Source of the DNA: a virus | Lineage: Duplodnaviria; Caudoviricetes | Direction: 5' to 3' (one strand) | DNA: 64,000 nt | Virus record (IMG/VR): IMGVR_UViG_3300014204_000124 | Span: 1 to 64,000 of that record | Shown here: positions 184 through 63,787 of the stretch, piece after piece | How the letters are laid out: every line of letters starts with the position of its first letter | Numbering within the stretch: position 1 is the stretch's first letter | Position numbers and translations under genes: made by a program | Notes under the pieces: model-generated | The model's database searches: none | Told to the model about the DNA's origin: nothing | Seen by the model: the letters and a program-made list of their open reading frames with translations, nothing else

Positions 184-693
184 ATGAAGCAGTTGGAGCG
201 TTTGAGAGTTTTGTTAGAATCGGCGAGCGAGCGAGTTGACGAGTCCGTCTGGGTACCGACGTATGGGAGAGAGAAAGAGACAGACCCGGTTGAAATTGAC
301 GGGTCTTATATGCAGCGATTGGTGGCAGCCAGGGTTGGCTGGTTGGCTGAGGTGGTGGCGGGGATCGCTGCGAGGGTTCTTTCTATCAAGGACGGGTCGC
401 AGTACGAATATAGCAGTGTGAAAAGGGTTGCTCCGTGGGAGTATGCTGGTGCTGATTACAATTTTGTGTCGAGGGTGGGAACAGGGAGTATTGAGTTCAG
501 GCTGGTCAGCAAGGGTGACTCTTATCCCCAAGCTGTCAGTGTGAACAGTGGCGAGAAGAACAGAGTCCCTATTGGTAGTGTTGCCGTAGCATATACGGCG
601 AGAGACGATTCGATTGTAACGAAGACGTTTATGTTCGACGCGGGCACTAAGCCAGCGGAGTTGGCAACTGCCATTCTGGGGTTTATTGGTTGA
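184..693 (+). CDS. Hypothetical protein with shared N-terminal leader (MKQLERLRVLLES), putative capsid-internal protein
   Basis: Purine-rich SD (GAAGGGGG) before ATG 184; leader matches six other proteins in the window. Confidence 0.65.
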   Translation: MKQLERLRVLLESASERVDESVWVPTYGREKETDPVEIDGSYMQRLVAARVGWLAEVVAGIAARVLSIKDGSQYEYSSVKRVAPWEYAGADYNFVSRVGTGSIEFRLVSKGDSYPQAVSVNSGEKNRVPIGSVAVAYTARDDSIVTKTFMFDAGTKPAELATAILGFIG

Positions 694-699
694 GCGCAA

Positions 700-1122
700 T
701 TGATTGCGGGGGAGTTGATGTTGGTGGCAGGGACGTTACAGTCTGGGTTTTTGGATATGGCAGTGAACCCGTCTATTGATGTGGCGACAGCGGCGCAGAG
801 GTTCGCTGGAGTGTTGATGTCCTGGGCCAGCGGGGCACAGGCGATGGGAATTCCTGCTGTAGTTTCGGTGGCAGCGGCACAGGCCGGGTTTATGGCGGGG
901 GAACGGTTACCGATGATCTTATCTAAGTTTTGGCCTACTGTTGTTTTTGCAGGGATGGTCGCACCTCCTGTTGGGCCGCCTATGGCCGAGCCTTTGGTAG
1001 CGCCGACAGCGGATGCTGCTGGTGCGGCTCAAACGCTTGCAACGGCTATTCAATCAAATGCGATGATGCAGACGGTGACGTTTTTGGTAGGCGGAGTTCC
1101 AACTGTGTTTCCTATCGTGTGA
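700..1122 (+). CDS. Ala-rich hypothetical virion protein
   Basis: ORF directly upstream of the gp25-like gene; start uncertain (TTG 700 or ATG 718). Confidence 0.55.
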   Translation: MIAGELMLVAGTLQSGFLDMAVNPSIDVATAAQRFAGVLMSWASGAQAMGIPAVVSVAAAQAGFMAGERLPMILSKFWPTVVFAGMVAPPVGPPMAEPLVAPTADAAGAAQTLATAIQSNAMMQTVTFLVGGVPTVFPIV

Positions 1123-1128
1123 GGCATT

Positions 1129-1503
1129 ATGGGATTGGTGGATATCAAATTTGGGCTTGTGAATGCGGGTGGACAGTTCCCGGTCACACTATCGTCGAGT
1201 GATACAGTGGGGGATGTTATTTTGATAGCGTTGATGGTGAAGCGGGGGGCTTTCCCGTGGCTCCCCGAGTTTGGGGGTGACCAATCGGAACTTGTTTTTG
1301 AAAATCTTAGTCTTGATTCATTTAGGTCGAGGTTATTGGACCGATTGAGGTATTTGTTTTCATCGTATCTCCCATTTGTGAGGATTGTGGACGTTTTCCC
1401 GAAGGTAATGAACCATGGGGGGGCAGACGTATGGTTTGCGGATGTCCAGTATGAGTATCAGGGGGTTCCTGGAGGCGTTTTTGTACCATTAGGAGGTAAC
1501 TAG
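1129..1503 (+). CDS. Baseplate wedge/sheath initiator, T4 gp25/GPW-like
   Basis: Motif RGAFPWLPEFGG..SELVFE...YLPFVRIVDV typical of the gp25 family; 124 aa; directly upstream of baseplate wedge gene. Confidence 0.8.
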   Translation: MGLVDIKFGLVNAGGQFPVTLSSSDTVGDVILIALMVKRGAFPWLPEFGGDQSELVFENLSLDSFRSRLLDRLRYLFSSYLPFVRIVDVFPKVMNHGGADVWFADVQYEYQGVPGGVFVPLGGN

Positions 1504-3764
1504 TGGGGCGGAATAAGATAGCGACAGATTTGCCGGTGCGTTTGTACGGTGTGGACCGTGCGATGATACGGGATTTTGTTTTGCAGGAGTTGAAGGGAAA
1601 CGCGTCTTTCGCTGCTGTTTTCAACAATTTTATATCAGCGGCACAGGGGATGCTGTTTATTGAGGTTGTAGTGAATGCCACCTTGCACGCTATTTACTAT
1701 GGTGATCGGCGCGCCAAGAACTCATATCTTCCGACTGCGGATCTTCGGTCGGCAATATCCGCTATATGTGACACACTGGGTTATAAAATGCGAGGTGCGG
1801 CGGCTGGGGTTGTTGATCTGGATGTAGTGGGGTTGCCTTCCGGCCCATATGTGTTTGATGTGGTTATTCCGAGGGGTTTCAAGTTTATAGGTGATGGCAA
1901 GGTATTTGAGTCGACTGAGTCTAAGACCGTCCCTGCTGGGTCGGTAGCGTTAGCGGGTTCGATAGCACTATGCCAAGGGGAATCAAAGACTAGGACATTT
2001 ACCGGGGATGGTAGTGCCAATCAGCGTTTGGTTTTAGCGGATGTTACGGATTCTTCTGGTAAGTATCTTGCTGGTGGCAGTGTGAAGGTTTGGGTCAACG
2101 GAGTCGAGTGGGATATAGTTGATTTTATTTCATTTGGTGCGGGGGAGGAGGTTCAGGTTGATTACAATGCCACTTTCCCGGAGATAAGGGGAGGGGATGG
2201 GGTTGCCGGAAAGGTTTTCCCTGTTGGTGCGACTGTCCTGGTTTCGTATTTTGTTACTGATGGCGAACGGGGCTATGTGGCGAAAGAGCGTATCAACGCT
2301 GCTGCGAGTACATTGACGGTGGCAGGTCAGGTTATTCCATTGGCCGTGCTGAATTCTAAGGCTGTAGGCAGTATGTCGGGGCCGGAGACTCTCACTGAGG
2401 CCAGGGTAGCCGCGCCACGTTGGCGTAGAGCTGGTCAGGCGAAGGTTGTTGCCGATGACATAGAGGCAATGGCCGAGGCTTTCTCGGATGCTCAATACGG
2501 GGTTGTTGCCAGGGCCAAGGCGTTTTCTGCTAGGTCAGCCAGTTCGGATGTGGCGTTCCAGGGGATGTTGTCAGAATTGCGGAGTAGTGTCTCGCAGCCG
2601 TCCTCTGTGATAACATCGGAAGTGGCGGCTATAACTCAGTTATTGCTTGCTTCCAAGGCGTTGGTTGATGGGATTCGTTCGGATCTTTCCGATATAGAGT
2701 CAGCGAAGGGGGATATCTCGGCAGAGCGAGGGCAGGTGGACAATAGCAGAAGCGTACTATCGACCAGACTCATTGATTTGACTTCTCACATATCATCTTT
2801 GCAAAGTCATATCACCAGTTTCACTTCGGCGGCGTCGATAGTGAAGGTAAATGCTATCCCTCTGGCAGCGTTGGTATCGGGCACAATTACAGGGACCGGA
2901 GCACCTGGGGACAACGCATTGGACCCTGTTACGTATGCTGAGTTGGCTTTGTATTCAGGGCTTTTGGCGGTCAATGGGGTGATAGTAGAGTCGCAGACGG
3001 CGGCGTTGGGGCAGGACAAAAATGATTTGCAGGGTGATGCTTCAGCTTTGGGAGGTCTTGCTACGGCGTTGGCGAGTTCGGTTACCAATATAACAGCATC
3101 CGAGAACGAAATTCAGGTTGGCAAGAATTCAGCAACTGTTCGTGCCGATGCGTTAGAAGATGCGGGGGGCACAGTTGGGAAGTTTGTGGATATTGCGGCT
3201 GCATTGGTAGTTGCCGAAACAGCCAATCTTGGATGGTCGGACGATGGCGAGTTATTGGCACAGTCGCTTTACGATCATGTTGACGCTATTCTGTCTCACG
3301 ATTGCAAGGCGAATGTTGTCAGTTTGCCGGTGCTTTCACTAAACTCTGAGGGATACTATGCAGCGCCTTCTGTTGGGCTAATCGCTCGACTTGAATCATA
3401 TATGAACGATGGCAAAAAGGCTCCGTCTGTGTTCATTTCGGTAGCGTCACGCGAAGATTCTTTGGTGGCTGCCACCGTGGAGATAACGGGTGTGCTGTTG
3501 CCTGGGTATGTGCGGGAAGAGGTGCAGGATGCACTTGTTGAAGTCGTTAGTCAGGTATTAAAGTTGAGGGAGTTTGGCGTTTCGTTGTATGAGAAGGAAA
3601 TTTACGATGCAATTCATGATGCCGGTATCAGCGGCATTGGTTCTGCGCTGACTGTTCAAATTACCGGGCCGTCGCAATATCTTGATTCTCGCGGCAATCT
3701 TATCATTGATTCAACAAGGGTAGTGACGAAGGGGAATGTTTCTGCCATTCTGACATTGTCATAG
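1503..3764 (+). CDS. Baseplate wedge protein (T4 gp6 / baseplate J-like) with central helical insertion
   Basis: SYLPTA.LRSAI..ICDTLGYK, GDGVAGK, GPETL.EARVAAP, VVADDIE motifs; gene order after gp25. Confidence 0.8.
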   Translation: MGRNKIATDLPVRLYGVDRAMIRDFVLQELKGNASFAAVFNNFISAAQGMLFIEVVVNATLHAIYYGDRRAKNSYLPTADLRSAISAICDTLGYKMRGAAAGVVDLDVVGLPSGPYVFDVVIPRGFKFIGDGKVFESTESKTVPAGSVALAGSIALCQGESKTRTFTGDGSANQRLVLADVTDSSGKYLAGGSVKVWVNGVEWDIVDFISFGAGEEVQVDYNATFPEIRGGDGVAGKVFPVGATVLVSYFVTDGERGYVAKERINAAASTLTVAGQVIPLAVLNSKAVGSMSGPETLTEARVAAPRWRRAGQAKVVADDIEAMAEAFSDAQYGVVARAKAFSARSASSDVAFQGMLSELRSSVSQPSSVITSEVAAITQLLLASKALVDGIRSDLSDIESAKGDISAERGQVDNSRSVLSTRLIDLTSHISSLQSHITSFTSAASIVKVNAIPLAALVSGTITGTGAPGDNALDPVTYAELALYSGLLAVNGVIVESQTAALGQDKNDLQGDASALGGLATALASSVTNITASENEIQVGKNSATVRADALEDAGGTVGKFVDIAAALVVAETANLGWSDDGELLAQSLYDHVDAILSHDCKANVVSLPVLSLNSEGYYAAPSVGLIARLESYMNDGKKAPSVFISVASREDSLVAATVEITGVLLPGYVREEVQDALVEVVSQVLKLREFGVSLYEKEIYDAIHDAGISGIGSALTVQITGPSQYLDSRGNLIIDSTRVVTKGNVSAILTLS

Positions 3765-3773
3765 GAGGGGAGG

Positions 3774-5846: not shown

Positions 5847-5857
5847 TGGAGGTATAT

Positions 5858-6367
5858 ATGAAAGAGCGTTTTGTTTCCGAGACATTTTGGGGTGCTGTTG
5901 AAACGGGTGTTGCGTCAAGGGTGGTGGTTACAGAGGAGGTGTTGGCGCAGCGTGTTCCTTCGGCACCAATGAAGCAGGCTATTGGTAAAGTAACTGCTAA
6001 GATATCAGGACTGTTGTCCGACTTTTTTGATGAGGAGTTCAAGCGTCTTGGGGGGCGGTTAGTGTCGGCTCTGTTTTCTAGCGGGAAGGTTGTAGTCAGG
6101 GGCGAGTTTGAGAGGAATGGATGGTCGGTGGATCTGACGATTACCTATCCATTTGTTCCAGGCTTGGTTATGTGGAAGATGGAAAGAGTGAACGAGATAC
6201 CATGGCGGGCGATAGTTTCTGGTTATGGGATAGAGGGGGAAGAGCGAGTTGGGGCGATGACACTGAGTGCAACGTCTGTTGTGACCTTGGATGACTTTGT
6301 AGAGGCATTGGGTGTTGGTAAAGTGATGGGCTCGCCTTCCAAGGGGACGAAGTTGGTGGGGGCATGA
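5858..6367 (+). CDS. Hypothetical protein
   Basis: SD GGAGG before ATG 5858; overlaps next gene by ATGA. Confidence 0.6.
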   Translation: MKERFVSETFWGAVETGVASRVVVTEEVLAQRVPSAPMKQAIGKVTAKISGLLSDFFDEEFKRLGGRLVSALFSSGKVVVRGEFERNGWSVDLTITYPFVPGLVMWKMERVNEIPWRAIVSGYGIEGEERVGAMTLSATSVVTLDDFVEALGVGKVMGSPSKGTKLVGA

Positions 6368-29408: not shown

Positions 29409-29440
29409 TTGACTTCGGATTTACTTCGATTATGCTGTAA
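29409..29440 (+). promoter_or_regulatory. Promoter family copy with leader hairpin and TGACAGC
   Basis: TTGAC-N17-TATGCTGTAA; GTCGGG..CCCGGC hairpin, TGACAGC at 29465. Confidence 0.85.
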
Positions 29441-29661: not shown

Positions 29662-31086
29662 ATGGAAGAAAAAACGAAAAGTATGTGCATCGGATGCACC
29701 GAAAACTTCTACAACGGGAATAACCCATACGGAATTACCGAGTGCTGGGGGTTTGCAACGGCGACAGTCGAGAAGCGGAAGTTCGTGCCCATGGATATGC
29801 GACCTCCATGGGATTTGCCGTCTGAGGAGACGTTGGACTGCCACAAGAAAAAGGGTTATATTTCGGTTAGAGAAGGAGTTATGTGTTGATGGGAGCGAGA
29901 GCATACAACCGAGGCACGGCCCTTGTGGCCCGGCAGATTGCAGAGGACTTTGCGGCGAAGCGTCGGGAAGGCTGGCAGACCGATGATGTAGCCGAGTTGG
30001 CTTTTACTGCCAAGGCAGAGATTGAACGGCTGAAGAAGGAACTGGAGAGAGCGAAGCGTGGAATCCGCAGTCGGGATCTCGTGATCGCTACGGAGCGTCG
30101 CCGAAACGTTTTGGTTCTGGAGGTTTTGAAAGACGTGTATCGAAAATTCAAGGAAGTGACTCCGGTTAGGACCAGACAGGACTACCGGGTTATGTACTGG
30201 TTGACACTCGCCCGATATCGTGCGAACAGAGTCGACCCGAGTGAAGGGGTTATTTTGTAAGGAGAAAGTTATGGTTTGGAAAAGTGATTGGTGGAAGTAT
30301 TTTGTCGTACTGCTGATTTTGGGATGTCAGCAGAAGGTGGTAGAACGTAGTCTGCCCGATTTAGTTCCGGTGGACGTGGCCGTAACTGATGAGCCAGTTA
30401 CGGAGGAGTTTTTGTCAGCGTTTTGGCGGGCGTTGAAACGTCATATGCCCAATGGCTTGGATTTTGCGATGTTGAGACAACTAATGAGGTAGGTTATGCA
30501 CGACGACGGTTACAGGGTGAAGAGCACGGGGATGTGTTGCGGCGGGAAGTGTGGCGAAGATGATTTCTACATTGTAGCAGAAGATGAGGGGGAAATTATA
30601 CTAGTAGAGGGACCGTACGAGGGGAACGGTGTTGTCACTCACACGAGGATTCCTATAGTCGCAAATTACGCGGGAGTTCCTGTAGAACACGTAACGGTTA
30701 CGAAACTTTGCGATATAGGTAAGACGGTGTCTGACTTCCGAACCTCCGAGGTATCTGATGATGAACCTGAATTTGAGAGTTTGGAGTTCAGCATGGCTCG
30801 TGAAGAAGGTATCCCGACTTTGTCTGTTGTTTGCGGCCTTATGGAGTTCGGGATGTCTCTGCCCCGGTTCTATACGTGGCTCGGGCGGGTTATGAAAGCC
30901 GTGTTTGCTATTGAGGAAGTTTTGTCTAGGTTTGGGTTAAAGAGAATAGAGGGGCCGGATGCTTTGGTGAGCGAAGAATCGGAGTATTCTTTCACGGTAT
31001 GGGCGACGTGGCAGTTCGAAGGTGATGAGAAAACGATGAGAATGGTAGCGGCTGTATTGGCGGGCAAGGGAGTGAAGCCGGGATGA
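29662..31086 (+). other. Hypothetical CDSs 29662-29889, ~29889-30260, 30271-30492 (lipobox-like LILGC), 30496-31086
   Basis: Packed ORFs. Confidence 0.55.
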
Positions 31087-32072
31087 ACACGCTGGGGCGT
31101 TTCAGACTTGTAGTGGAGGCGGTGGGGCGGGTGTCCTATTCCATGGATAGGTATCGGAAGACTCTGGATTCTGTGATGTTGCATTGGGCGGAGATTGCCT
31201 ACGACAAGGTGCAAGCTGCGAAGGCGTCACCTCCTGATTGGGGGGCATTGGTAAGAGACGTGAGGGATTTGCTGGGTGATGCTGCTGCTTCTGTTATGGA
31301 CCCGAAGGGGGGCAAATGGGTGTCACCATTGGTGGTCCAGTTGTTGCGAAATCGTTCTACTGAAGACTACGCGAAGTATCGGGACGTATACAAGCGATTG
31401 CTGGCGTTTGAAGATTCTGTGGCAGATGTTAGGTCTTGGGCAGAGACGGTGAAACAGACGAAGGCCGAGGCCGCCGATATAGCCAAGTTGACTGAGCGTG
31501 AATTGCGAACAGCGGCGAAGTTGGTGGGGGCCGCTATAGGTAGGGTGGAAGCTTGGGGAGGTTCTGAGGTAGCGGTAGAAGTAGCGGAGCCGGGTGAATC
31601 GTTTGAGAAGCCGGTAACCACGTTCGAGGTGAGAGTAGGGCCGAAGGCGGGGTTCACCTTGTTTCTGGACAAGGGCGAGGTTTCTGTAGATGATGTACTT
31701 GACGCTGGGGATGATGATTTCTTTGCCACTGTTGGGGAATCGGCTGACTACTTCTCATTGGTGAAGGAATTAGAGCAGCCAGGGGCAACGTCGAAGGGAA
31801 AGACATTGGTGCTGTATACCGCACGTCCGGCGAAGGACCGGAAGCAGTTTGAAGGGGCCAAGAAGTTGCCGGTTGGGTTGTTTTTGACTTCTACGCTGAA
31901 CGATGCAGAGGGGATTGGCTCTGATTTTGGCGGGCGTGACATTTGGAAGGTGTGGATTGACGACAGGTATTTGATGCAGATGTTGAATGCCGGTGGCGTA
32001 AGGCATTATCAGGTGGTGGGGCGTGAGCCAGCGCCAATGAAGCGAGCGATGGAGCGTATTGGAGGTGATTGA
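31083..32072 (+). CDS. Leader-tagged putative capsid-internal protein; C-terminal ADP-ribosyltransferase-like segment (tentative)
   Basis: MNTLGRFRLVVEA leader; LVLYTAR...GLFLTS..NDA pattern. Confidence 0.5.
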   Translation: MNTLGRFRLVVEAVGRVSYSMDRYRKTLDSVMLHWAEIAYDKVQAAKASPPDWGALVRDVRDLLGDAAASVMDPKGGKWVSPLVVQLLRNRSTEDYAKYRDVYKRLLAFEDSVADVRSWAETVKQTKAEAADIAKLTERELRTAAKLVGAAIGRVEAWGGSEVAVEVAEPGESFEKPVTTFEVRVGPKAGFTLFLDKGEVSVDDVLDAGDDDFFATVGESADYFSLVKELEQPGATSKGKTLVLYTARPAKDRKQFEGAKKLPVGLFLTSTLNDAEGIGSDFGGRDIWKVWIDDRYLMQMLNAGGVRHYQVVGREPAPMKRAMERIGGD

Positions 32073-32398
32073 TGAACCAGTTAGACAGGCTGAGGTTATT
32101 GGTGGAAGCCAGTCAGCGGGGGGTTGCTCCTCGTACTGGGGAAGGCAAGGATATTCCGTCGTGGCGTCAGACGCTGAACAACGCACTGACTTATTCGTTT
32201 GTGAACACGAATGTTTATCTCATTGTTGACGTTTTCAAGGACGGCGAGAAGGATACGACTGTGTCCGGCAGTGCGTCTAGGCTTTCCAGTTGGCTGGCCG
32301 ATTTCCAGAAAACGAGTGGTGATGCTCGGGTCTCGGTTGAGATCAAGGCATTTTCTACGGATCGCAATTGGTCCAGGTCTAAGGCTGACGAGGTGTAA
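32072..32398 (+). CDS. Leader-tagged putative capsid-internal protein
   Basis: MNQLDRLRLLVEA leader; SD GGAGG. Confidence 0.65.
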   Translation: MNQLDRLRLLVEASQRGVAPRTGEGKDIPSWRQTLNNALTYSFVNTNVYLIVDVFKDGEKDTTVSGSASRLSSWLADFQKTSGDARVSVEIKAFSTDRNWSRSKADEV

Positions 32399-32403
32399 CT
32401 CGG

Positions 32404-33087
32404 ATGATCCGTTACGGGAACAGGGCCAGGAAGGTGTCAGACGGGACGTTGACGCATTGGTCTAGCGTTGGCGGGTATGACCCTTCGATGGCCCAGCATC
32501 CGGCTGCACTGAACCCGGCACTCTATACGGACTTTGCTGCGTGTGCGTTCTTTGTCGATAACGTATGCGGGTGGGACGACCTAGTCTTTCCTGCTGTTGG
32601 GGTGAATCTGATTGGGCCTGCGGTTGACCCAACGGCAAACTTGACCTATATGACGCTGGATTTTACTGATGCTAAGGACTGCGTTGTTCATGTAACGTAT
32701 CAAATGCCGCATAGTTGGAAGGTTGGTTCAAATGTCAACTTCCATATCCATTGGCAACCGTCGAATACGGACGTTGGAAGTTGCAACTGGGAGGTTCGGT
32801 ATCAGTGGCGGAACGCTACAGGAGACGTTGCTTCGGCGGCGGTCTCGGCTTGGGCTCTTGTGCCGAAGGCCGTGACGCCTGGGGGTGTGGCGAGAGTAGC
32901 GCAAATGGATACCCTTGCCAGCTTCATCGGAACTGGTAAAGGGGTGTCTTCTCTGCTACAGATAGAATTGCGAAGGCTCGGGACGACAGACGCTTTCACT
33001 GGAGATGCAATGCTGGTTTCGCTGGACTTGCACTATCAGATTGACACCGCTGGTTCTGTTACCGAGAGTAGCAAATATGGGTTATAG
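32404..33087 (+). CDS. Beta-rich putative virion protein
   Basis: WDDL.FP ... QMPHSWK.GS....HIHW ... LDLHY.ID..GS pattern seen in phage structural proteins. Confidence 0.5.
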   Translation: MIRYGNRARKVSDGTLTHWSSVGGYDPSMAQHPAALNPALYTDFAACAFFVDNVCGWDDLVFPAVGVNLIGPAVDPTANLTYMTLDFTDAKDCVVHVTYQMPHSWKVGSNVNFHIHWQPSNTDVGSCNWEVRYQWRNATGDVASAAVSAWALVPKAVTPGGVARVAQMDTLASFIGTGKGVSSLLQIELRRLGTTDAFTGDAMLVSLDLHYQIDTAGSVTESSKYGL

Positions 33088-33137
33088 GTTCAGCATGGCG
33101 GGCCTGGGTTGGCCCTTGAGGATATACGAGGTGTAGT

Positions 33138-34475
33138 GTGGACGTTGTTGATCGATTCCGAATGGTGGTAGAGAGCAAGGCTATTGGGGCCGACAAGTCG
33201 GAAGAGATGGTTCGACGAGGTCTGAACACGTTTTCTGGGATGTACGATATTGCGTTGGAACAGTGGTTCTTGCGGGTGAACCGGCGGGAAGATGGGAAGG
33301 CTCGGAGTAGTCTGTTGCCGGGGAAAGCTAAGAAGGCATTGGCGAAGGTTTCGGCGTCTGTGAAGGCTTCGGTGAAGCCAGGGATGAGTGTGAAGCGGTG
33401 CTGGGGATTGTGGAAGGCAGCGGCGGCGGAAGCGTTTAGCGGGGAAGAGTACAAGAGTTTGTATGATAGCAAATGGGGTGAGTTGAAGCGAGCCAACGCC
33501 CAGTTGGACGCGTATTTTCGAGCCGCCAGTGACGGCGCAACGGAGGGTCTTATGAGAGATTTAGATAGGTTGAGAATGATTCTGGAAGCGGCTGACAAGA
33601 GTGTGACGAGGGTGAGGATATTGGCTCAGGCGCAGTCGGTCGAGGTCTGGGATAAGGACCGTCTTGTCATGGATTCCGAGAAGACCGATTTCCCGTTTGA
33701 GCCGAACTGGAAGGATTTACCAGGACTTGTAAAGCGTTGCCAGAAGGCATGGCCGAAGGCGAAAGTGGAGTTGAACGAATCGTTCGAATCTGACACGTTG
33801 AACCAACTTTTGGATATGGAAGTCGAACCTTCCCTGACAGAAGAGGGTGTCTCTGCGGACGGTTCTGCGATGATCGTCTTGAAGCTGGATTCTGAGTGGA
33901 AGAAGACGCAGAAGGCGTTGGTGGTAGTTGTCACGAAGGGGTTGGCAGCGGTGAATGCTTGGGCGAAGCAGCAGGGGCTGAAGTTCAAGAAGGCAGCGAA
34001 TCTGTTTGGCGGGGAGTACGTTGACGGGGAAGGCAACTTCTATGTGGCGTACCCTAAAATGCTGAAGGATGGTGCGGCTGAAGGCGGGCGTGTTGCTTGG
34101 GCTGAAGATGAGGACCGTGAGCCTGCGAATCTGGACGAAGCATCTGTGCCGCAGAAGTCGGAGGAAGCGTTCATTGCACCTATGGCGAAGGTAACGGGGA
34201 CGAAGTTCAAGTTGGGCCGAACGGTGATGACTGCCGGGGTCAATGCTGAGATTCAGGATACACCGGCTCTGGGTGGCTGGGTGGCTCAGTGTTTGCAGCG
34301 GCACGCCAAGGGCGACTGGGGCGACATTGACAAGGAAGACGAGGGTGAGAACGACAAGGCGTTGCAGAGCGGCGGGCGGCTCTTCTCCGTCTACAAGAAG
34401 GGGCGTGTAAAGATCTGGATTATCACAGAGGCAGATCGTAGTTCGACGACGGTGCTATTCCCGGATGAATACTAG
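33138..34475 (+). CDS. Multi-module leader-tagged protein with a second in-frame leader/start at 33552
   Basis: MDVVDRFRMVVES; internal SD GGAGGG plus ATG giving MRDLDRLRMILEA; C-terminal RH..GDWGD...WIITEADRSSTTVLFPDEY domain. Confidence 0.75.
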   Translation: MDVVDRFRMVVESKAIGADKSEEMVRRGLNTFSGMYDIALEQWFLRVNRREDGKARSSLLPGKAKKALAKVSASVKASVKPGMSVKRCWGLWKAAAAEAFSGEEYKSLYDSKWGELKRANAQLDAYFRAASDGATEGLMRDLDRLRMILEAADKSVTRVRILAQAQSVEVWDKDRLVMDSEKTDFPFEPNWKDLPGLVKRCQKAWPKAKVELNESFESDTLNQLLDMEVEPSLTEEGVSADGSAMIVLKLDSEWKKTQKALVVVVTKGLAAVNAWAKQQGLKFKKAANLFGGEYVDGEGNFYVAYPKMLKDGAAEGGRVAWAEDEDREPANLDEASVPQKSEEAFIAPMAKVTGTKFKLGRTVMTAGVNAEIQDTPALGGWVAQCLQRHAKGDWGDIDKEDEGENDKALQSGGRLFSVYKKGRVKIWIITEADRSSTTVLFPDEY

Positions 34476-34483
34476 GGGGTGCC

Positions 34484-36718
34484 ATGAAAGCGATTGACCG
34501 GCTTGTGCGGGTGTTAGGGGAAGCGTTCGCAGACAGGGCAGAAGAGAGGGCTATGGTCTCTAATTTTGAGTCTGCGTTAAAGGCGTGGGTGAAGTCTTCC
34601 CCGAAAGAGTGGGGAGCGCGTGTTTCTGTACTAACGCCCATTATGAAGCGGTACGCTGGCACAGAGTTCCCGTTCTTGGTGATATTCGACGGGATATCTA
34701 GCGAAGGTCGCCCTGTCTCGTTCAAGTTGACGTATATCACAGCGGAGACGGCGGGGGGGTCTGGCGACGGTGGTATGGAGGTTGCTGCCCAGCATGGTGT
34801 TCCTGTGTGGAAGGGCCGTCGTTTCGACCGTTTATTTGTAGGTGACTTCAAGACTATCTGGCCCGAGTGGCTTGCGCATTGGGACGTTCGGATAAAGGCC
34901 GATATTGAGTCTGGGATTGAGGGAGGGAAGTTTGTTCTTGAGTCTTCCGATGACGAGTCGAATCTGACTGAGGCGGCGATAACAGGGGACAGTCTGTATG
35001 GCCCTGGGAAGGCTGCAAGCAAGTTCGTGAGGAAGCTGGATGTAACAGAGGCGGTGTTTCAACTGACCAAGTATTCTCTGCTGAATCCAGGTGTGATCAC
35101 GCTTGGCGGGAAGGCGGCGAAGGCAGTGTTTCGGGTGTCTGGCTACATTTTGATTGGTTTACCAGGGCGGGTGACGTTTTCAGCGGATTTTGACGATGTA
35201 GCGGTTCAAGTTGATATGGTGCTGGACGGGGAGAAGGCTACGGCGAAGGGTGCCACGGTTGCTTCTGGGATAGACTACGGGGACGCTATTGACGCTGAGG
35301 ATCTCATTGAGAAGCATCTTACGGATGGTGATGCTCTGAAGTTCTACGCCGATTTTTTTGATGATATTCAGGCGAAAGAGGTAGCCAAGGCAAGGGACGC
35401 TGAGGCTGCGAAGCATCCCGCACCTAAGTTTCGGGTTGGTGACAGAGTCTGGTTGCTCGACGACAAGTCTCGGGCTAGGGCTATGAAGTCGAAGGGGCTG
35501 TTCCGTATCGCGAAGTATCTGGGGATTAACACCGACATCCGGGGGGATGCTCACCAATATGAGATTGCTCTTCCTGGAGGAGTGCCGACAGCCGAGTACA
35601 CTAAGCGTTACGAAGGAGAACTTCGTGCTGCGACGTATGCGGAGATGAAGGCGTTTGAGAAGTTGAAGAAGGCGGTGAAGGAGGAGTTTGGAGAAGCGTC
35701 GGCAATGGACGTGACGGTGGTCACTCCTGACAACGAGTTGTCCGATTCGGAGTTGGCTGCCAGGATCAAGTCTTACGGCATCGACAGAAGGGCTGCATGG
35801 AGTCAGTTTGTCATAGCGAGGTCTTTGTCTCCACGTATGGATGCGAAGGACTTCATGGCTATTTTCGATGGAGTTTCGGCAAACCCTCACAAGAAGACGG
35901 TTCGGGTGGATTTCGAGCCTACGCATAGGTCAAAAGACAATCAGGGGCTGACGTGTATGGTGACCCAGCGTCTTCCCCAGCAGGTCCGCTATGTCTTGAG
36001 TCACGGGGGAACAGGGGCAGACCCAGTGTCTATGTTTGAAAAGGGGTGGATACCCATTGGTAAGTCTGAGTCCGTTTCCGAATCAGCGCCCAGTCCGAAA
36101 GCTGAGTGTTTCGAGGTGATGGGGAAGTTGTGGGCAGCGGTATTGAAGAAGACAGGTGCGGAGAAGGTTGCCGAGAAACTGAGCGGGGATGGTGCGAAGC
36201 CGTTCCAGGTCAACCTCGTGTTCATGGTTTCGGATCTGGCTGCCGACGTTCGCAATGCACCTATCGGACGGGGCATTCGCCAGTTCGGGCGTGGTCCTGG
36301 AGGGAGGCTCGGGATTGATCCGCCCGAATTGAGTCTGGAGGCTGCGAAGTGGTGGTATGACCAGACGGATGCGGTGCAATACACGATGACACGGGCGATT
36401 CTTGCGGAGTTTGCCAAATCCAAGGGAATCACCTATGACAAGAAGAAGATGATTGAGAGCGAGGACGAGTCTGAGCGGATGTTGATTGTCACCGATCTCG
36501 ACAGTCTGTATGCGAAGGCTCTGGCTGTGGACCGTCCGAAGAATTCCAATGTTCTGGAGACGGTTCGGCAGTTCTTGAAGCGTGTGCCTGGGTCTAAGCA
36601 ATATGAGTCCAGTGCGACGGGGGGGGAGGCTCCTACGGAAGCCGAGTTGACCTCTTGGGTTGGTGTTTTGAAGCGTTTTTTCTCTGACAACGGAGTGGAC
36701 TGCGGCTGCGAAGGCTAA
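34484..36718 (+). CDS. 744-aa multi-module leader-tagged protein
   Basis: MKAIDRLVRVLGEA leader; modules separated by acidic LxE|S/A linkers. Confidence 0.75.
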   Translation: MKAIDRLVRVLGEAFADRAEERAMVSNFESALKAWVKSSPKEWGARVSVLTPIMKRYAGTEFPFLVIFDGISSEGRPVSFKLTYITAETAGGSGDGGMEVAAQHGVPVWKGRRFDRLFVGDFKTIWPEWLAHWDVRIKADIESGIEGGKFVLESSDDESNLTEAAITGDSLYGPGKAASKFVRKLDVTEAVFQLTKYSLLNPGVITLGGKAAKAVFRVSGYILIGLPGRVTFSADFDDVAVQVDMVLDGEKATAKGATVASGIDYGDAIDAEDLIEKHLTDGDALKFYADFFDDIQAKEVAKARDAEAAKHPAPKFRVGDRVWLLDDKSRARAMKSKGLFRIAKYLGINTDIRGDAHQYEIALPGGVPTAEYTKRYEGELRAATYAEMKAFEKLKKAVKEEFGEASAMDVTVVTPDNELSDSELAARIKSYGIDRRAAWSQFVIARSLSPRMDAKDFMAIFDGVSANPHKKTVRVDFEPTHRSKDNQGLTCMVTQRLPQQVRYVLSHGGTGADPVSMFEKGWIPIGKSESVSESAPSPKAECFEVMGKLWAAVLKKTGAEKVAEKLSGDGAKPFQVNLVFMVSDLAADVRNAPIGRGIRQFGRGPGGRLGIDPPELSLEAAKWWYDQTDAVQYTMTRAILAEFAKSKGITYDKKKMIESEDESERMLIVTDLDSLYAKALAVDRPKNSNVLETVRQFLKRVPGSKQYESSATGGEAPTEAELTSWVGVLKRFFSDNGVDCGCEG

Positions 36719-36725
36719 TTTATGC

Positions 36726-36753
36726 TTGACTACTCTCACGGTTCGATTATGCT
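36726..36753 (+). promoter_or_regulatory. Promoter family copy (divergent downstream of -10)
   Basis: TTGAC-N17-TATGCT. Confidence 0.75.
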
Positions 36754-36778
36754 ATGTCGTGAACGGTGAGGGGAAGAC

Positions 36779-37186
36779 GTGATGATAGCGTTATTAGCGG
36801 TTGCGGCGGTCGTTTGGTGGTCCTTGATGGGCTTTCCTACGGCTCCGGTGCTTGCGCTATCACCCCCACTACTTGCCAACCTTCAGCCAATACTGAGCAG
36901 GGAGGGGTCCGTTGCTAGGATAGCAGGGGTGTGGTACAGGAAGTTCATTCTTCCACCGCCCCCTCTGTATGCTACATGTGGTCTTGGGACGCCTACGAAC
37001 GTTAACGGTGCGATTTTGATTGGGGGGGCGGAGAGCCGCCCCCGTGCTATAGGGGGAAAGGATGTGGTGGTATCTGTTGGTTTCGTTTGGGGTGACTCAG
37101 ATTCTAACGACGAGCAAATTGTTTGGGCCGTGGCGCAATCGATTTCGTGCCAGGGTGGAGCGTTCTATGCGAGCGAGGGGATGTGA
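36779..37186 (+). CDS. Hypothetical protein with N-terminal hydrophobic segment
   Basis: First ORF after promoter, SD GAGGGG; overlaps next ORF by 125 bp. Confidence 0.4.
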   Translation: MMIALLAVAAVVWWSLMGFPTAPVLALSPPLLANLQPILSREGSVARIAGVWYRKFILPPPPLYATCGLGTPTNVNGAILIGGAESRPRAIGGKDVVVSVGFVWGDSDSNDEQIVWAVAQSISCQGGAFYASEGM

Positions 37187-56821: not shown

Positions 56822-57807
56822 TGATGAATAGGTTCGATGTTGTAGCCGAGAAGTTCGAGGCGTTGTGTCGGCAGTACGCCATGCCTGTTCCGAGGGTCGT
56901 GCCGTCGTTGGCGACTGACCCGTGCGACTTCACGTCGGCAGAAGAGGTTCGGTTGAACGTGGAAGCTGCTGGGGAGATTGACGCTGACTACCATGCGAGG
57001 CATGTGTTCGGGCATTACCTATGTGATCTCCACTGTTCGGAGCCGAGCGGGAATCAGGATTGGGCAGACCCGATTGCCGATCTGATAGCGCAGTGGACGA
57101 CGAGCCATGATTCGATGGTCCGTTTGACCAGAGTATTCGAAGGGGCACGGTCATGTTCATCATCGGGAAGCATTGTAAGGATGTCCCTGGTGCAACCGAT
57201 GTCAGAAGGGGCGAATTTGGCATTTTGGCATGAGGGAAAGGAAGATGATTGAGGTAGGTCAGAAGCTATGGTTCGTGCCGTACGAGCCGCACAGGAATCC
57301 ACCGTTTGAGGTGGAGGTGGTCAAGGTCGGAAGGCGGTATGTCACGGTGAGTCGGTGGGAAGGCGACACCAACTTATTGAAACTGGAGAAGGATTCTCTC
57401 AGGCAGGCAGGTAGTGCCGGAAGCAAGGCATACGTGAGCAGGGGCGCGTATGATGATTGGGTTGCCTGCGAGCGTGCGTGGAGTATGTTGCGGGAAGCGG
57501 TATGCTGGTCAAGACCAGAGAGTGTTACGATGGACCGGATCATGGGAGCTTTGGCCTTGCTTCGGGGTGAATAATGGGAGCCATGAGGGTGCGTGGGAGA
57601 AGATTCGTTGTGTGTGACACTGCCGGGATGTTCCGGGGGTGTGCCAAATGTGAGTTTTCTGCTCCTCAATGGAAGGAGGCATTCTGGGCTCCTCCGAATA
57701 GGGCATATGATGTTTGGCATTCAGGGAGGATGCAGTGCCCGTTTGGGCGAGAGATTGGATGTTATCTAGCTGTCAGGCTTTTCGAAGTCTCAGAAATAAA
57801 TTCTTGA
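56818..57807 (+). other. Hypothetical CDSs 56818-57252, 57245-57574, 57574-57807
   Basis: Coupled ORFs. Confidence 0.55.
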
Positions 57808-57877
57808 CATTATCCGCAGTCCGATTATGCTGTAAGGGTCCAGCAGAGGAACTGGGCATTGACAGCTAATGGGGGAC
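57780..57877 (+). repeat. Promoter-leader cassette repeat, copy C (promoter 57804-57835)
   Basis: 94/98 identical to 11337-11434. Confidence 0.95.
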
Positions 57878-57880
57878 GAG

Positions 57881-59391: not shown

Positions 59392-59468
59392 GTATAGAGC
59401 GCAATCGATTGCGGGACCTTCCCGGACTGGAATTGGGATTGAAGAGTAGACGACAATCCGAAAACATC

Positions 59469-59497
59469 TTGCATAGGTAAAAAACGGCGGGTATCAT
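59469..59497 (+). promoter_or_regulatory. Possible sigma70 promoter
   Basis: TTGCAT-N17-TATCAT. Confidence 0.5.
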
Positions 59498-59523
59498 GGG
59501 CCTAACTTAGGCGAGGAGTTGGT

Positions 59524-59703
59524 ATGCCCGACCTAGAGAAGGACCAGGAATTGGTACTCAAGTTTGGGGGAACCGCTTCAGCGGGTTTCATGGTTATCGC
59601 TATTTCTACTTCGGCTTGGGAAATTGCCCGGAAGAAAGCGGAAGAGGAAGGGACGAAACCGAGCGATATTGTTTCAAGAGCATTGGTAGCTTACTGTTCG
59701 TAG
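59524..59703 (+). CDS. 59-aa ribbon-helix-helix-like protein (not in ORF track)
   Basis: SD GAGGAG; ...FMVIAISTSAWEIARKKAEEEGTKPSDIVSRALVAYCS*. Confidence 0.6.
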   Translation: MPDLEKDQELVLKFGGTASAGFMVIAISTSAWEIARKKAEEEGTKPSDIVSRALVAYCS

Positions 59704-59712
59704 GAGGATACA

Positions 59713-60069
59713 ATGGGAAGATATTTGGAAGCATTGGGGTCTATTGTTATGGCAGAGGATAATCCTTGGCATACCGACACCGGGGAGTTCGGGCTGAACC
59801 CAAAGGGGCCAAGCACCTATTCCCTTTTCTTCAAAAAGAAGGGGGAGCCCAGGTACACTGCGTATCCGTCGAAGTCTGGTGAAAAGTACGCTAAGGCGTC
59901 GAAGATCAAGACGTTATGTGGCCGTTCCGGCCCCGCCCTATGTAAGGGCGGCGGAAAGTTTGCCAAGGCTGGCGAACGAGCTAAAGAAGCTGGAGCCGAG
60001 ACAGATAAGCGCGAGCGCAGAAAAGCCCCTGTGAGTGGGGGAGGTTTCAGAAAGGGTTCTGGTAACTAG
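59713..60069 (+). CDS. Basic protein with NPWHxxxGxF motif, putative head-internal protein
   Basis: MGRYLEALGSIVMAE-DNPWHTDTGEFG; Lys-rich. Confidence 0.55.
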   Translation: MGRYLEALGSIVMAEDNPWHTDTGEFGLNPKGPSTYSLFFKKKGEPRYTAYPSKSGEKYAKASKIKTLCGRSGPALCKGGGKFAKAGERAKEAGAETDKRERRKAPVSGGGFRKGSGN

Positions 60070-60120
60070 AGGCCGCAGTTTTCCTACGGTCTCATTCTAT
60101 AGACAGCGAGGAGGGTTCCC

Positions 60121-61443
60121 ATGAAAGTGACTTTGACTGCGGTAACTGCCTGTGAGTTGCCGAAACCGTTCGGGGGGAAATTAGCCGTTGGTGAGTCCAC
60201 GCCTGCGACAAACATCCGGTTTAAGGATGTATTATCGGATGACTGGTTGGGGATTGTACGTCTTCGACAGCAGGGCATAGTGACGATGACGGTACAGGTT
60301 GATGCAGTCCCTGTATTTGACGACGAGTGGTTCATTGCCGAGATGGGCAAGGTTCGCGATAATGCTGCTGCTCCTGTGACCACTCTGGCTGCTCTGCGGG
60401 CCGTCCCGCAGAGTTTGCGAACGGATCGCCAACTCCGGTTGGTTGAGTCCGAGAACACGCTGTACAGGTTTGACCTGGGCACGCTGGTTGGTGGAGAAGC
60501 ACCGGATGACGAGGTAGATGGCAATTGGTTCAATCTTGGAACTGTGGCTGCTGTTTGGGGCGTTGTTGGTGAGTTGATTGCTATGGGGCCGGATGTTGCC
60601 GCTGGTGCTGGCGTTGTTTCCAAGATGGCTAGAATAGACCATACCCATGCCGTGAACACTGCGTTGGTTGCTGCCATCACCGATGTAGCACCGGATGCTG
60701 TAGCTGCTGCTGGCGTGGCGAACAGTTATGCTCGTGGCGACCACGCCCATGGTATCGCTACGTCGGTCACGGCATCGACGCAGGCTCCTGGCGATGTTGC
60801 TGCTGCTGGTGTTGCTGCGGACGTAAGCCGTGGCGACCATGTTCATGCCATGACTACTGGTCTGGTTGGTGAACTTGCTGCATTAGGGCCGGATGTTGCG
60901 GCTGGTGTGGGTGCTGTAGCCAAGTTTGCTGAGATTGCTCATACGCACGCCGTGAACACCGCTCTTGTCGGCGCTGTGGCGGATGTTGCTGCTGTAGCTG
61001 CTGCTGGCGTGGCGAACAGTTTCGCTCGTGGCGACCACGCCCATGCCATTGGTGCTGGCGTGGTGAAATCGGCGGATCTGGCTGTACAGGCGGCTGTAAC
61101 CGGTGGTATTCCGTTTGTTGTGGTGTTTACGCTTGCTGGTGGTGGTGCTGCCGAGGGTATGTTATGGAACGCCAATTGCCCCATGAAACTCCGTTTCATG
61201 GATGTTGGAATAATGGCAACCGTCGGAAGTGTGGGTGGCACTGTGACGCTGTATGATGACGACCCTTCGGGTGCCGGTGTCCCGCTGACAGATGCCATAG
61301 CCATGGATACTGACAAGGCGGTTACGCGCCTTGGTTCGGTTGAAGGCGACCCCACTGTTCTTGCTGGCGGGTCTCTGTGGTACAAGAAGAACGCTGCTGC
61401 CGATGGTGGCCACGTTACTCTTACGTGTGTTGCTGTGGCATAA
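60121..61443 (+). CDS. Fibre/decoration-like virion protein with HxH repeats
   Basis: Five motifs: RIDHTH, RGDHAH, RGDHVH, EIAHTH, RGDHAH; Ala/Gly/Val-rich internal duplication. Confidence 0.65.
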   Translation: MKVTLTAVTACELPKPFGGKLAVGESTPATNIRFKDVLSDDWLGIVRLRQQGIVTMTVQVDAVPVFDDEWFIAEMGKVRDNAAAPVTTLAALRAVPQSLRTDRQLRLVESENTLYRFDLGTLVGGEAPDDEVDGNWFNLGTVAAVWGVVGELIAMGPDVAAGAGVVSKMARIDHTHAVNTALVAAITDVAPDAVAAAGVANSYARGDHAHGIATSVTASTQAPGDVAAAGVAADVSRGDHVHAMTTGLVGELAALGPDVAAGVGAVAKFAEIAHTHAVNTALVGAVADVAAVAAAGVANSFARGDHAHAIGAGVVKSADLAVQAAVTGGIPFVVVFTLAGGGAAEGMLWNANCPMKLRFMDVGIMATVGSVGGTVTLYDDDPSGAGVPLTDAIAMDTDKAVTRLGSVEGDPTVLAGGSLWYKKNAAADGGHVTLTCVAVA

Positions 61444-61449
61444 TCGGAG

Positions 61450-61773
61450 GTGCCGGTGACCTACCTTAATCTACTGAAGAGGGTAGCGGTGCGGGGGTTG
61501 ATGGAAGGTCGGCTTTCCCCCCGTACCGGTCTCACTGGTAAGAGTCCGGTTTCTGTTTTGCTTTTGCTTACGTCATTAGCATCGGCCCCGGAAGAGTTTA
61601 GTGTTGATGTAGCTGCGAAGGACATTCTTTCGAAGTTTAGAGTCAGCAAGAAGACGCGTGGATTGGTGAACAAGAAAGCCGAGAAAGAACGTGATGTAAC
61701 TGCGGCGTCGAGAATGGCAATGATGGGCGGGGGAATGGGAGGACAATATCCTGAGCCTGAGCCCGAAGAATAG
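61450..61773 (+). CDS. Hypothetical protein
   Basis: SD GGAGG; start GTG 61450 or 61456. Confidence 0.55.
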   Translation: MPVTYLNLLKRVAVRGLMEGRLSPRTGLTGKSPVSVLLLLTSLASAPEEFSVDVAAKDILSKFRVSKKTRGLVNKKAEKERDVTAASRMAMMGGGMGGQYPEPEPEE

Positions 61774-61785
61774 AGGAGGTGACAT

Positions 61786-62193
61786 ATGCGTTGGATAGTT
61801 GTGCTGGTTATTTTGTTGTTTGCGAGTGGGTGCGATTCTGGAGAGGTTTGGGGCACTGTCCTGGAGAATCTTTTACCTATAGTAACGGCGGTGCTTTTGC
61901 CGGTGCTGCTAGTTCTAGTTCGTAAGTTTCTCTTGTGGCTAGAGGTCAAGCTAGATTTCGACATGAACGAGGCTATTGAGCTGAAGATTCTCTCATTGAT
62001 TGAAGAGGGGATTCTTTATGCTGAGGAGCAGGCGTTGAAGGCTTTGAAGGATGGGAAGAAGTTGGGGTCAGACGACAAACTACGTCTAGCTATTGAATAC
62101 GTAGTAGAGCGTTGTAGAGATCTTGGTTTACCAGAGTTGGCAAGGGACAAATTAGTTAAGTTGGTCGAGTCTAAGGTCGGTGTAACCAGATAG
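61786..62193 (+). CDS. Holin-like protein (LL-H-type)
   Basis: N-terminal hydrophobic segments; ILYAEEQ...DKLRLAIEYV...GL...LVESKV pattern. Confidence 0.6.
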   Translation: MRWIVVLVILLFASGCDSGEVWGTVLENLLPIVTAVLLPVLLVLVRKFLLWLEVKLDFDMNEAIELKILSLIEEGILYAEEQALKALKDGKKLGSDDKLRLAIEYVVERCRDLGLPELARDKLVKLVESKVGVTR

Positions 62194-62201
62194 GTGTATC
62201 G

Positions 62202-62492
62202 ATGGCGAGTGTATGGGAATGGCTAAAGAAGTGGGGTTGGGTTGTGATATCACTCGCTGTTGTAGTGATAGGTTTTCTGTTTCTAGGGAGGCGTGTTGGG
62301 GCTCAGTTTTGGGATGGTTTGAGTAATCGTTTGGCGGAGAAGATCCTGGATGCAGATGCTAGATATGTGGAGGCCCGGACGAGGGCCAAGGTTGTTACTG
62401 AAATTGAGCGGGCCAAGATAGAGTCGTTATCGCAGATTCCAGATCCCAGGGAGCGTCGGGACAAGATTGCCGAGATGCTGAAGGATCTGTAG
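62202..62492 (+). CDS. Membrane-anchored coiled-coil protein (possible spanin/lysis accessory)
   Basis: Single N-terminal TM segment followed by charged helix; follows holin-like gene. Confidence 0.45.
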   Translation: MASVWEWLKKWGWVVISLAVVVIGFLFLGRRVGAQFWDGLSNRLAEKILDADARYVEARTRAKVVTEIERAKIESLSQIPDPRERRDKIAEMLKDL

Positions 62493-62522
62493 CCTCATCT
62501 ACCATTGGGTAGAAGGAGATCC

Positions 62523-62550
62523 GCCGTCCCTACGGGGTCGGTGAGTTTTT
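62523..62550 (+). terminator. Probable intrinsic terminator
   Basis: GCCGTCCC-TACG-GGGTCGGT hairpin followed by GAGTTTTT. Confidence 0.55.
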
Positions 62551-62605
62551 GCCTTGAATTCAACGACAGAACGGTATACTATAATCGCAACAATGGAGGT
62601 GTATC

Positions 62606-63204
62606 TTGCGGAAGCGGTTCATGTTTTGCGAGGTGGCTGGCAAGTCAGTTTTGAAGGAAAAGTGCAAGGGGTGTTCGACATTTCCCAAGCTGAGTCCAGA
62701 GTTTGCTGCGTTTCGGGATTCGTGTCCTGTATGGCAGGAGATTTTGAGAGTAGCGAAGGAATCGAAGGCAGAGCGAATGTCAAGGGTTATAGAGAACCCA
62801 TTTACTCTGCCCACAGACGAAGACCCTGGTGTTGCATATTGATATCTTGAATAGGTCTGATGGTTCGGTTAGAGTGTGGCAGTCGGAGGTTTGTCATGGA
62901 AAGTCTGCTGCTGTTTCTGGAGAGTGTATTTGAGGTTGAGGTTCCGGCGGATGTAACGAGTATTGTGTTGGTGCGGAAGACAGGGAAGGCTCGTGGGGTT
63001 GTGAGACGGGGCGGTGACCGTGTTTACGAGGCGAAGGGTGGTGCATTCCAGGCGTTATTGAGGGAGTGTGTGGAGTGGAGCGGGGAGGGGGATGTTCCGG
63101 TTGTCGAGGTTGACGACGGGTTTGTGGAATATGCGTTTGTGTCCGGGGCTTGGCGGAAGGTTGTCGAGTCTGGGACGAGGCGTGTCGTATATGCAGGAGC
63201 GTAA
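62606..63204 (+). other. Hypothetical CDSs 62606-62842 (Cys-rich) and ~62860-63204
   Basis: SD GGAGG; upstream TTGAAT...TATACTATAAT promoter-like sequence at 62554-62585. Confidence 0.5.
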
Positions 63205-63205
63205 C

Positions 63206-63787
63206 ATGGACGTTATCGATAGATTGAAGTCGTTGGTTGAGTCTGCCCAAGTCGATGTACCCGCTGCGCAGGGAAATACGTTTGGGGAGTCTGCTGGATG
63301 CGACGATACGGCGGATGCCATTGGTGGGGCAGAGCACTATCGGGTGACGTGTCCAGTGTGCGGGGGTGTGACGCAGTGCCGGTGCAATTATGCGCAGCAC
63401 GAGGGCGTTGAGGTATTCGAGGCTTCGGTGGTCTGCGAACGATGCAAGGCCAGCGTTGGGGAGTCGGTCGATGGGGCGCAATCGGTTGCAACTGAGATTT
63501 TGCGACAGCTTGGAGGCCAGAAACTCAGGGCAATGCTTGGCATGAAGGGTTATTTGGTGGTGGATGCTTCGGAAGGGTTCAGTGGCGGTGTGGACTTCAA
63601 GTTTCCTAACAAGACCAAGACGGCTCCGAACAGGGTGGAGATTCTGTTGGCAGACGACGACACCTATACGGTGCGGTTCTACCGGGATTCGAGGAAGTTG
63701 AAAGAACACGACGGGATTTACGCAGACGGTCTCATAGATGTATTCGAGTCAGAGACGGGGCTGTATCTGGCGCTTTCGAGGAGGTAA
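63206..63787 (+). CDS. Leader-tagged two-module protein
   Basis: MDVIDRLKSLVES leader; Zn-finger module; C-terminal EILRQLGG...DTY.V.F...FE..TGLYL domain. Confidence 0.7.
   Translation: MDVIDRLKSLVESAQVDVPAAQGNTFGESAGCDDTADAIGGAEHYRVTCPVCGGVTQCRCNYAQHEGVEVFEASVVCERCKASVGESVDGAQSVATEILRQLGGQKLRAMLGMKGYLVVDASEGFSGGVDFKFPNKTKTAPNRVEILLADDDTYTVRFYRDSRKLKEHDGIYADGLIDVFESETGLYLALSRR

Follow-up and report, generated by a model that had tools for sequence, protein, structure and literature searches.

The targeting of proteins to the interior of a phage head by a short N-terminal peptide has been an established principle in bacteriophage T4 since 1996. The ten-residue capsid-targeting sequence (CTS) of T4, MKTYQEFIAE, suffices to package foreign proteins, and it alone is common to the otherwise diverse internal proteins of T-even phages (PMC9026906, PMC8442874, PMC3012670). 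Targeting depends on residues 4 and 7 of this peptide and processing on residues 8 and 10, the prohead protease gp21 cleaving after L/I-x-E (PMC9026906). The phiKZ-like giant phages (201phi2-1, SPN3US) likewise contain many head-internal proteins that are cut after Glu, by the diverged gp21 homologues gp175 and gp245 (PMC9026906, PMC10052503). We have analysed a window of 64,000 nucleotides (nt), bases 1-64000 of the 129,634-bp IMG/VR virus record IMGVR_UViG_3300014204_000124, an uncultivated metagenomic phage. An earlier note on this DNA had described an N-terminal peptide, hereafter the tag, shared by seven unrelated proteins, and had proposed that it loads them into the prohead. Our analyses suggest that the tag is probably a propeptide that targets proteins to the capsid in the manner of the T4 CTS and that would then be removed by an S77 protease. 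The checks that could be computed all came out as this capsid-loading reading predicts, and we regard it as partly supported; prohead loading, cleavage after Glu, injection and an effector function are what we infer from them.

The 39-bp overlap between the two ends of the record points to a circular assembly. A crude gene caller of our own, run over the whole genome, places 208 of 210 genes on the + strand, and a DNA search with positions 30000-37000 found no match among GenBank phages. All seven peptides translate exactly, on the + strand, at the coordinates where they had been described. The number seven holds for the tags and not for the proteins, since the copy at 33552 lies in frame and without an intervening stop codon inside the open reading frame (ORF) 33138-34475. 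Accordingly, the window contains six tagged ORFs, given here with their lengths in amino acids (aa):

184-693, + strand: tagged ORF of 169 aa; tag in codons 1-12 (184-219), M-K-Q-L-E-R-L-R-V-L-L-E followed by S; no Pfam or PHROG match.
31083-32072, + strand: tagged ORF of 329 aa; tag at 31083-31118; helical N-terminal half and a predicted ADP-ribosyltransferase-like C-terminal domain (residues ~239-329).
32072-32398, + strand: tagged ORF of 108 aa; tag at 32072-32107; no family match.
33138-34475, + strand: tagged ORF of 445 aa with a GTG start; tag at 33138-33173; no family match.
33552-33587, + strand: second tag copy, lying within the 33138 ORF (residues 139-150) and preceded by a separate GGAGGG, with a separate ATG; 14.9 bits with a hidden Markov model (HMM) of the tag.
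34484-36718, + strand: tagged ORF of 744 aa, multi-domain; 13-residue tag at 34484-34522.
63206-63787, + strand: tagged ORF of 193 aa; tag at 63206-63241; AGGAG upstream; Cys-rich Zn-ribbon-like insert.

A six-frame search of the whole genome added five N-terminal tags past the end of the window (genome 64196, 64602, 65542, 66026 and 66549), and the family now amounts to 12 tags on 11 ORFs, the last of which (92 aa, genome 66549-66827, L002:6549-6827) overlaps by 58 nt the provisional start that the caller chose for the next gene (66770). These tags occupy three places in the genome, namely 184, 31083-36718 (cluster b) and 63206-66827 (cluster c), the gene at 63206 being the first of a cluster that runs on past the window. 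The peptide is always N-terminal or preceded by a Met of its own, a purine-rich Shine-Dalgarno-like stretch is found 4-12 nt upstream of each tag in the window, and no other ORF of the window carries the tag, as the earlier note had said. The copy at 33552 may represent an internal start, or else two cargo genes fused as a polyprotein. Over the 12 tags the consensus reads M-x-x-[LIV]-[DEGNQ]-R-[LF]-x-x-[LIV]-[LV]-(x)-E, followed in 11 of them by S, A or G. Relative to the consensus first proposed, position 5 is widened by N and Q and the residue after Glu by G and E, and the 13-residue form noted for the 34484 copy is seen in four copies overall.

It is improbable that such a family arises by chance. 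The core regular expression matches 11 times in the called proteome, as opposed to 0.32 times on average, and never more than twice, in 500 within-protein shuffles, none of which gave an N-terminal match. The HMM assigns 12.8-20.7 bits to the tags and 4.9 to the next best site of the proteome, a position-specific scoring matrix at least 12.7 to the tags and 9.4 to the next best site, and N-terminal pair scores rise to 38 versus 22 for an internal control segment. The conserved Arg at position 6 is encoded by CGT, CGA, CGG, AGA and AGG, and the Leu/Val positions vary synonymously, which argues for selection on the peptide and not on the DNA or RNA. Past the tag, the bodies are unrelated, as had been claimed (no BLASTP similarity, best E 0.17), except that 64602 and 66026 are alike just past the tag. 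Pfam matched none of ten tagged proteins above threshold, a Zn-ribbon remaining sub-threshold for 63206, and PHROGs left the same ten unmatched save 63206, whose C-terminus is the domain of PHROG 9437 (phrog_9437, E 1.5e-17, function unknown); PHROGs were uninformative on ten neighbour genes. Tandem clustering of the genes and the 64602/66026 similarity might evoke a relic of repeated duplication, with bodies that have since diverged, or some constraint on translation initiation, in either case with no common targeting function. We hold this to be most improbable: the synonymous codon variation rules out a constraint at the RNA level, the bodies range from 92 to 744 aa and differ in fold and domain content, and one family of bodies is found in other phages behind different leaders or behind no leader at all (see below). 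In addition, conservation is stricter in the tag than in the body: a homologue of the 31083 protein (P0218), 73% identical overall, preserves 11 of the 12 residues of the tag.

The capsid-loading reading implies a T4-like head, and the head genes are indeed of the T4 type and in T4-like order: a portal (PF07230, gp20-type), two small core-position proteins, a protease-scaffold and a major capsid protein (MCP; PF07068, gp23-type). Two of these genes are referred to below:

genome 103749-104459 (L004:8749-9459): core-position protein of 236 aa.
genome 104661-106343 (L004:9661-11343): protease-scaffold of 560 aa.

The prohead protease gene, which the earlier note had called for without locating it, is of the T4 gp21 family of Peptidase_S77. 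This domain occupies residues 1-184 (PF03420, 42.9 bits for a cut-off of 27, E 5e-11) while the remainder is coiled coil; it aligns to the T4 gp21 structure 5JBL (E 4e-7) and keeps the D-H-P and S-S-R-G motifs. Homologues of gp22, gp67 and gp68 were not detected by sequence; what the module offers in their place are proteins of 277 and 236 aa, the positional analogues of T4 gp67/gp68, and the coiled-coil tail of the protease. The tail is contractile, with sheath, tube, hub and a gp6-like wedge.

Counted from the presumed cut, every one of the 12 tags has E at P1 and L, I or V at P3, the occurrence of V being a slight extension of the L/I-x-E rule of T4 gp21. The P1' residue is small (S, A or G) in all tags but one. 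The hydrophobic positions 4 and 7 of the tag match the targeting residues of the T4 CTS, and the P3/P1 pair matches its processing residues 8 and 10. The first 12 residues of the protease itself end in L-I-E, which recalls LIE-9 of T4 gp21 (PMC9026906); within residues 10-15, this enzyme and the products of 109626 and 110360 all show an ending of the L-I-E or V-L-E type. In 12 MCP homologues, [LM]-x-E72 of the propeptide is invariant and precedes the conserved fold. Taken together, it is tempting to propose that the amphipathic first part of the tag (hydrophobic 4 and 7, Arg 6) would dock the cargo on the scaffolding core during prohead assembly, that the gp21-family serine protease would then cut behind the terminal Glu, at aliphatic-x-E, and that the mature cargo freed inside the head would leave it with the DNA at infection.

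As in T4, a short N-terminal peptide with an aliphatic-x-Glu end and a small following residue stands on otherwise unrelated, hypervariable proteins, and T4 Alt, a packaged ADP-ribosyltransferase (ART) with cleaved propeptides, has its possible counterpart in the ART-like cargo at 31083 (PMC3012670, PMC9026906, PMC8442874). The portal, protease and capsid genes are homologous as well. The tag nevertheless differs from the T4 peptide in that its sequence is unrelated to MKTYQEFIAE, it has 12-13 residues in place of ten and it has a conserved Arg; the cargo genes number 11 versus 3-4 and encode up to 744 aa, and the protease and a long coiled-coil scaffold form a single protein. With the phiKZ-like phages it would share the processing of head-internal proteins after Glu by a gp21-like protease. 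However, those enzymes recognise S/A-x-E with few other determinants, whereas P3 is aliphatic here, as in T4, and their propeptides are long and have no single short tag in common.

Two further observations concern the distribution of cleavage-like motifs. The general proposal that cargo polyproteins are built on x-x-E linkers was rejected, since [LIV]-x-E-[SAG] is not enriched (0.58 per 100 aa in tagged proteins vs 0.49). The shorter [LIV]-x-E is rarer in tagged proteins than in the rest (1.36 vs 1.92 per 100 aa; 35 observed vs ~49 expected), a marginal difference that could reflect avoidance of spurious protease sites. A distinct motif is common to the 236-aa core protein, at its N-terminus (E-L-R-E-V-G-I-L-T-E), and to the protease-scaffold, at its C-terminus (E-L-L-E-V-G-I-L-V-E). 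In diverged form this pairing is also seen in two related genomes described below, G001 and G005, and a third, G003, shares the N-terminal copy; the motif might serve the head core as a second signal for docking and cleavage.

In the collection searched, the nearest capsid proteins from phage records are 27-31% identical, while metagenomes hold a large clade of capsid-protein relatives. Related loci were sought with the 744-aa cargo or a single capsid protein as query, which returned nothing, and were found with an alignment of capsid proteins. One of them, G001, is a complete genome of 133.7 kb whose MCP is 70% identical and which shares 101 of 210 proteins. The exact DRLR regular expression is absent from G001 and G005, and the diverged tags of G001 surfaced with a looser, Met-anchored pattern: seven of its N-termini are tag-like, M-x-x-[LIV]-x-[KR]-L-x-x-L-[LIV]-(x)-E. 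The same three loci as here (after the gp5-like gene, after the 30496 homologue and after the 62896 homologue) hold five of these seven, as well as a weaker tag-like start at 112599. Most of the bodies at these syntenic loci are non-homologous (184 vs G001 112599, E 2.0); 34484 and G001 28516 share a domain with 50% identity over 127 aa, and 63206 is homologous, through a shared domain, to G001 37099, which is tagged as well. Position and leader are thus kept and the cargo replaced, as described for the internal-protein loci of T-even phages.

The two remaining tags of G001 (33080 and 34926) belong to orthologues of 59713 and 61456, which look untagged in the window. These genes (59713-60069 and 61456-61773) are small and flank a conserved gene of 440 aa; their tag-like starts are degenerate here, while the orthologues begin with M-G-S-Y-V-Q-K-L-L-D-L-V-E and M-R-Q-L-R-R-L-E-R-L-V-E, and the starts at 59713 and 61456 may be decayed or variant tags. 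The tag is absent from more distant relatives, whose capsid protein is ~47% identical. Searching G003 and G004 for tags de novo gave results that were weak or confounded by crude gene calls, and the four small proteins of G005 that start with 'MF..L[IV]' are a lead at most.

The cargo itself offers some indication of what would be delivered. The AlphaFold2 (AF2) model of the 31083 protein, built from an alignment of metagenome homologues, has a mean predicted local distance difference test (pLDDT) score of 85.9; tag residues 1-11 are unpacked (pLDDT 34) and the fold begins at residue 12. In VIA-align comparisons, residues 239-329 match the Rhs toxin TreTu (Z 9.1, 2.2 Å over 83 residues), the diphtheria toxin catalytic domain (Z 8.1) and Tpt1 (Z 8.0), and all 50 rows shown (Z 9.1-5.7) are ADP-ribosyltransferases or related toxin/effector catalytic domains; Foldseek relates the domain to Tpt1 with a probability of ~1.0. 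The family conserves F-L-T and Y-Q as well as an L-Y-T-A-R-P stretch whose R248 is invariant; the canonical Q/E-x-E catalytic motif is absent from the family alignment. A tblastn search of the domain against GenBank phages gave no match. On the basis of these models, the C-terminal domain appears ADP-ribosyltransferase-like, with a non-canonical catalytic motif and no Pfam match. The 744-aa cargo contains a widespread domain of ~120 aa (residues ~400-530), which makes up many small proteins by itself and is also embedded in large ones of 2,500-5,300 aa, among which one has a Zeta-toxin/AAA_33 domain as well. The AF2 model of residues 395-540 reaches pLDDT 91.7, Foldseek found no match to this conserved domain in the PDB, and a word-indexed homologue search with the 744-aa protein returned only itself. 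An Atlas search with the 33138 protein gave weak leads and nothing stronger. Such cargo types, an ART-like fold and a domain recurring in giant multi-domain proteins, fit with injected proteins.

In the alignment of the metagenome homologues of the 31083 protein, the conserved body begins at a [IV]-x-[IV]-D strand. At 36-44% identity, homologues start with a different short leader that ends in Glu, with one of the MNWY/MNWL type or with a T4-CTS-like MK.F.EWL.E leader, or they have none. Leaders of the MNW[YL], MHWY or MWY type precede ~16 of the 62 homologues surveyed in metagenome loci, and in three longer loci (L144, L168 and L182) the leader is common to 5-7 neighbouring genes. In these loci, as in L164 and L130, 4-7 adjacent genes start with MNWY.. 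or MNWL.K.. and have unrelated bodies, one of which is ART-like. Four homologues have T4-CTS-like MK.F.EWL.E leaders, and others are leaderless. In L196:729-3872 (29% GC), 4-5 adjacent genes carry such T4-CTS-like leaders and one of them is of the ART-like cargo family; L181:4871 and L184:718 are listed along with it, and the leaders include M-K-K-F-S-I-W-L-E-E, M-K-F-S-E-W-L-E and M-K-T-F-Y-Q-F-L-E. A single cargo family therefore links three leader types (DRLR, MNWY and T4-CTS-like), and its occurrence with different leaders or with none indicates that tag and body have separate histories. The MNWY-type arrays of uncultivated huge phages resemble the present system in that neighbouring genes share one short leader on unrelated bodies, with the same ART-like cargo family, and differ by another sequence, the lack of a terminal Glu and other phage lineages; our literature search found no paper on MNWY-type leaders. 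Tentatively, and with rather less confidence than an even bet would call for, we propose that the DRLR tag belongs, as one dialect among several, to a broader and so far undescribed leader code of uncultivated tailed phages, in which lineage-specific leaders (DRLR here, MNWY/MNWL among huge phages and, where the phages are low in GC, the T4-like MK.F.EWL.E) would be swapped onto a common pool of effector domains, each leader being matched to its own scaffold and protease.

Several observations weigh against the loading of the capsid and have to be set beside the above. The specificity of the S77 protease is one that we infer from T4, at ~30% identity, and the alignment to mature gp23 leaves the exact cut in the MCP unfixed. 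The idea that the scaffold or the capsid propeptide might bear the same motif was not borne out: the HMM found the tag on no head or scaffold protein of the proteome, which in itself agrees with T4, where the CTS is confined to internal proteins. Unlike the internal proteins of T4, the mature cargos are not basic (pI 4.9-8.9). Ten of the 11 tagged genes are located outside the structural block, in the accessory half of the genome; the eleventh, 184, belongs to the baseplate module, with the gp5-like hub gene on one side and the wedge genes on the other. A k-mer search found no late-promoter motif common to the head or structural genes and the tag loci. A sigma-70-like promoter cassette, TTGAC-N17-GATTATGCTGTAAG, occurs 16 times, always within 11.3-91.6 kb and never in the structural block:

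cassettes in the window: 11361, 15145, 18130, 23604, 26515, 29409, 38424, 43399, 48272, 50920 and 57804; five more beyond it.

The cassette at 29409 and a degenerate one at 36726 bracket cluster b, and that at 57804 precedes cluster c; the cassettes would define and head the transcription units that hold both tag clusters.

This position of clusters b and c, in an accessory region behind sigma-70-like cassettes, would suit a signal that acts inside the cell, by which early or middle accessory proteins would be sorted or controlled, whether as an amphipathic helix that binds membranes, as a degron or as a handle for one common partner of phage or host origin. The moderate amphipathicity of the tag (mean hydrophobic moment 0.48 vs 0.30 +/- 0.16 for all N-termini) is compatible with such a role, as is the interleaving of lipoprotein-like and membrane-protein-like genes in cluster c. 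We consider it unlikely, for it leaves unexplained the invariant Glu, the aliphatic P3 and the small P1', the parallel with residues 4/7 and 8/10 of the T4 CTS, and the T4-CTS-like leaders on homologous cargo.

The gene at 184 raises another issue. Extracellular contractile injection systems, such as the Photorhabdus virulence cassettes, use an N-terminal signal to load diverse effectors into a particle derived from a contractile tail. In that respect they resemble the present tag; their packing signals are ~50 residues long and load the tube lumen, without any capsid, and they are not known to be removed by a head protease. One could accordingly imagine that the tag is a docking peptide, possibly uncut, for another virion compartment or partner, such as the lumen of the tail tube or baseplate or a dedicated chaperone. 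The tail is contractile, both 184 and its G001 counterpart lie between gp5-like hub and wedge genes, this counterpart has no Glu at position 12-13, and no head protein carries the tag; the baseplate position of 184 keeps the tail-loading variant alive. It seems quite unlikely all the same: ten of the 11 tagged genes are outside the tail module, a gp21-type end in 12 of 12 tags with a small next residue in 11 of 12 would be superfluous for mere docking, the contractile-injection signals are disordered stretches and not 12-residue helices, and the T4-type head module is a direct precedent for loading into the capsid.

Two other features of the genome are mentioned for completeness. The portal gene (L004:5075-7837, genome 100075-102837) is split by an intein with an HNH endonuclease (PF14890, PF13392), and the G001 portal, of 566 aa, is without intein. 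A small ORF after the gp5-like gene crosses the assembly junction (window 1-128, genome 129378-129634) and encodes T-E-F-rich short repeats, the DNA of which is ACCGAGTTT-like.

Relative to the principle known from T4, targeting of cargo by the tag would be an extension, that is, a new peptide in a distant uncultivated lineage. If the capsid-loading reading is true, the tag marks 11 proteins, ~2,700 residues altogether, that are carried in the head and probably delivered to the host; the ADP-ribosyltransferase-like product of 31083 and the large multi-domain cargo of 744 aa would be among them. Of all phage factors, such injected proteins encounter the host defences first, and homology is nearly useless for recognising them. 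A leader of 12 residues and its matching protease would also make a candidate portable protein-packaging signal. Should the wider leader code be true, the injected set could be read from sequence alone, and the leaders could likewise serve as portable packaging signals. Finally, if capsid loading by the tag holds, the logic of the T4 CTS would extend, with a different peptide, to a remote and uncultivated lineage within the T4 head superfamily, and one cargo family would be seen to move between phages by exchange of its leader.

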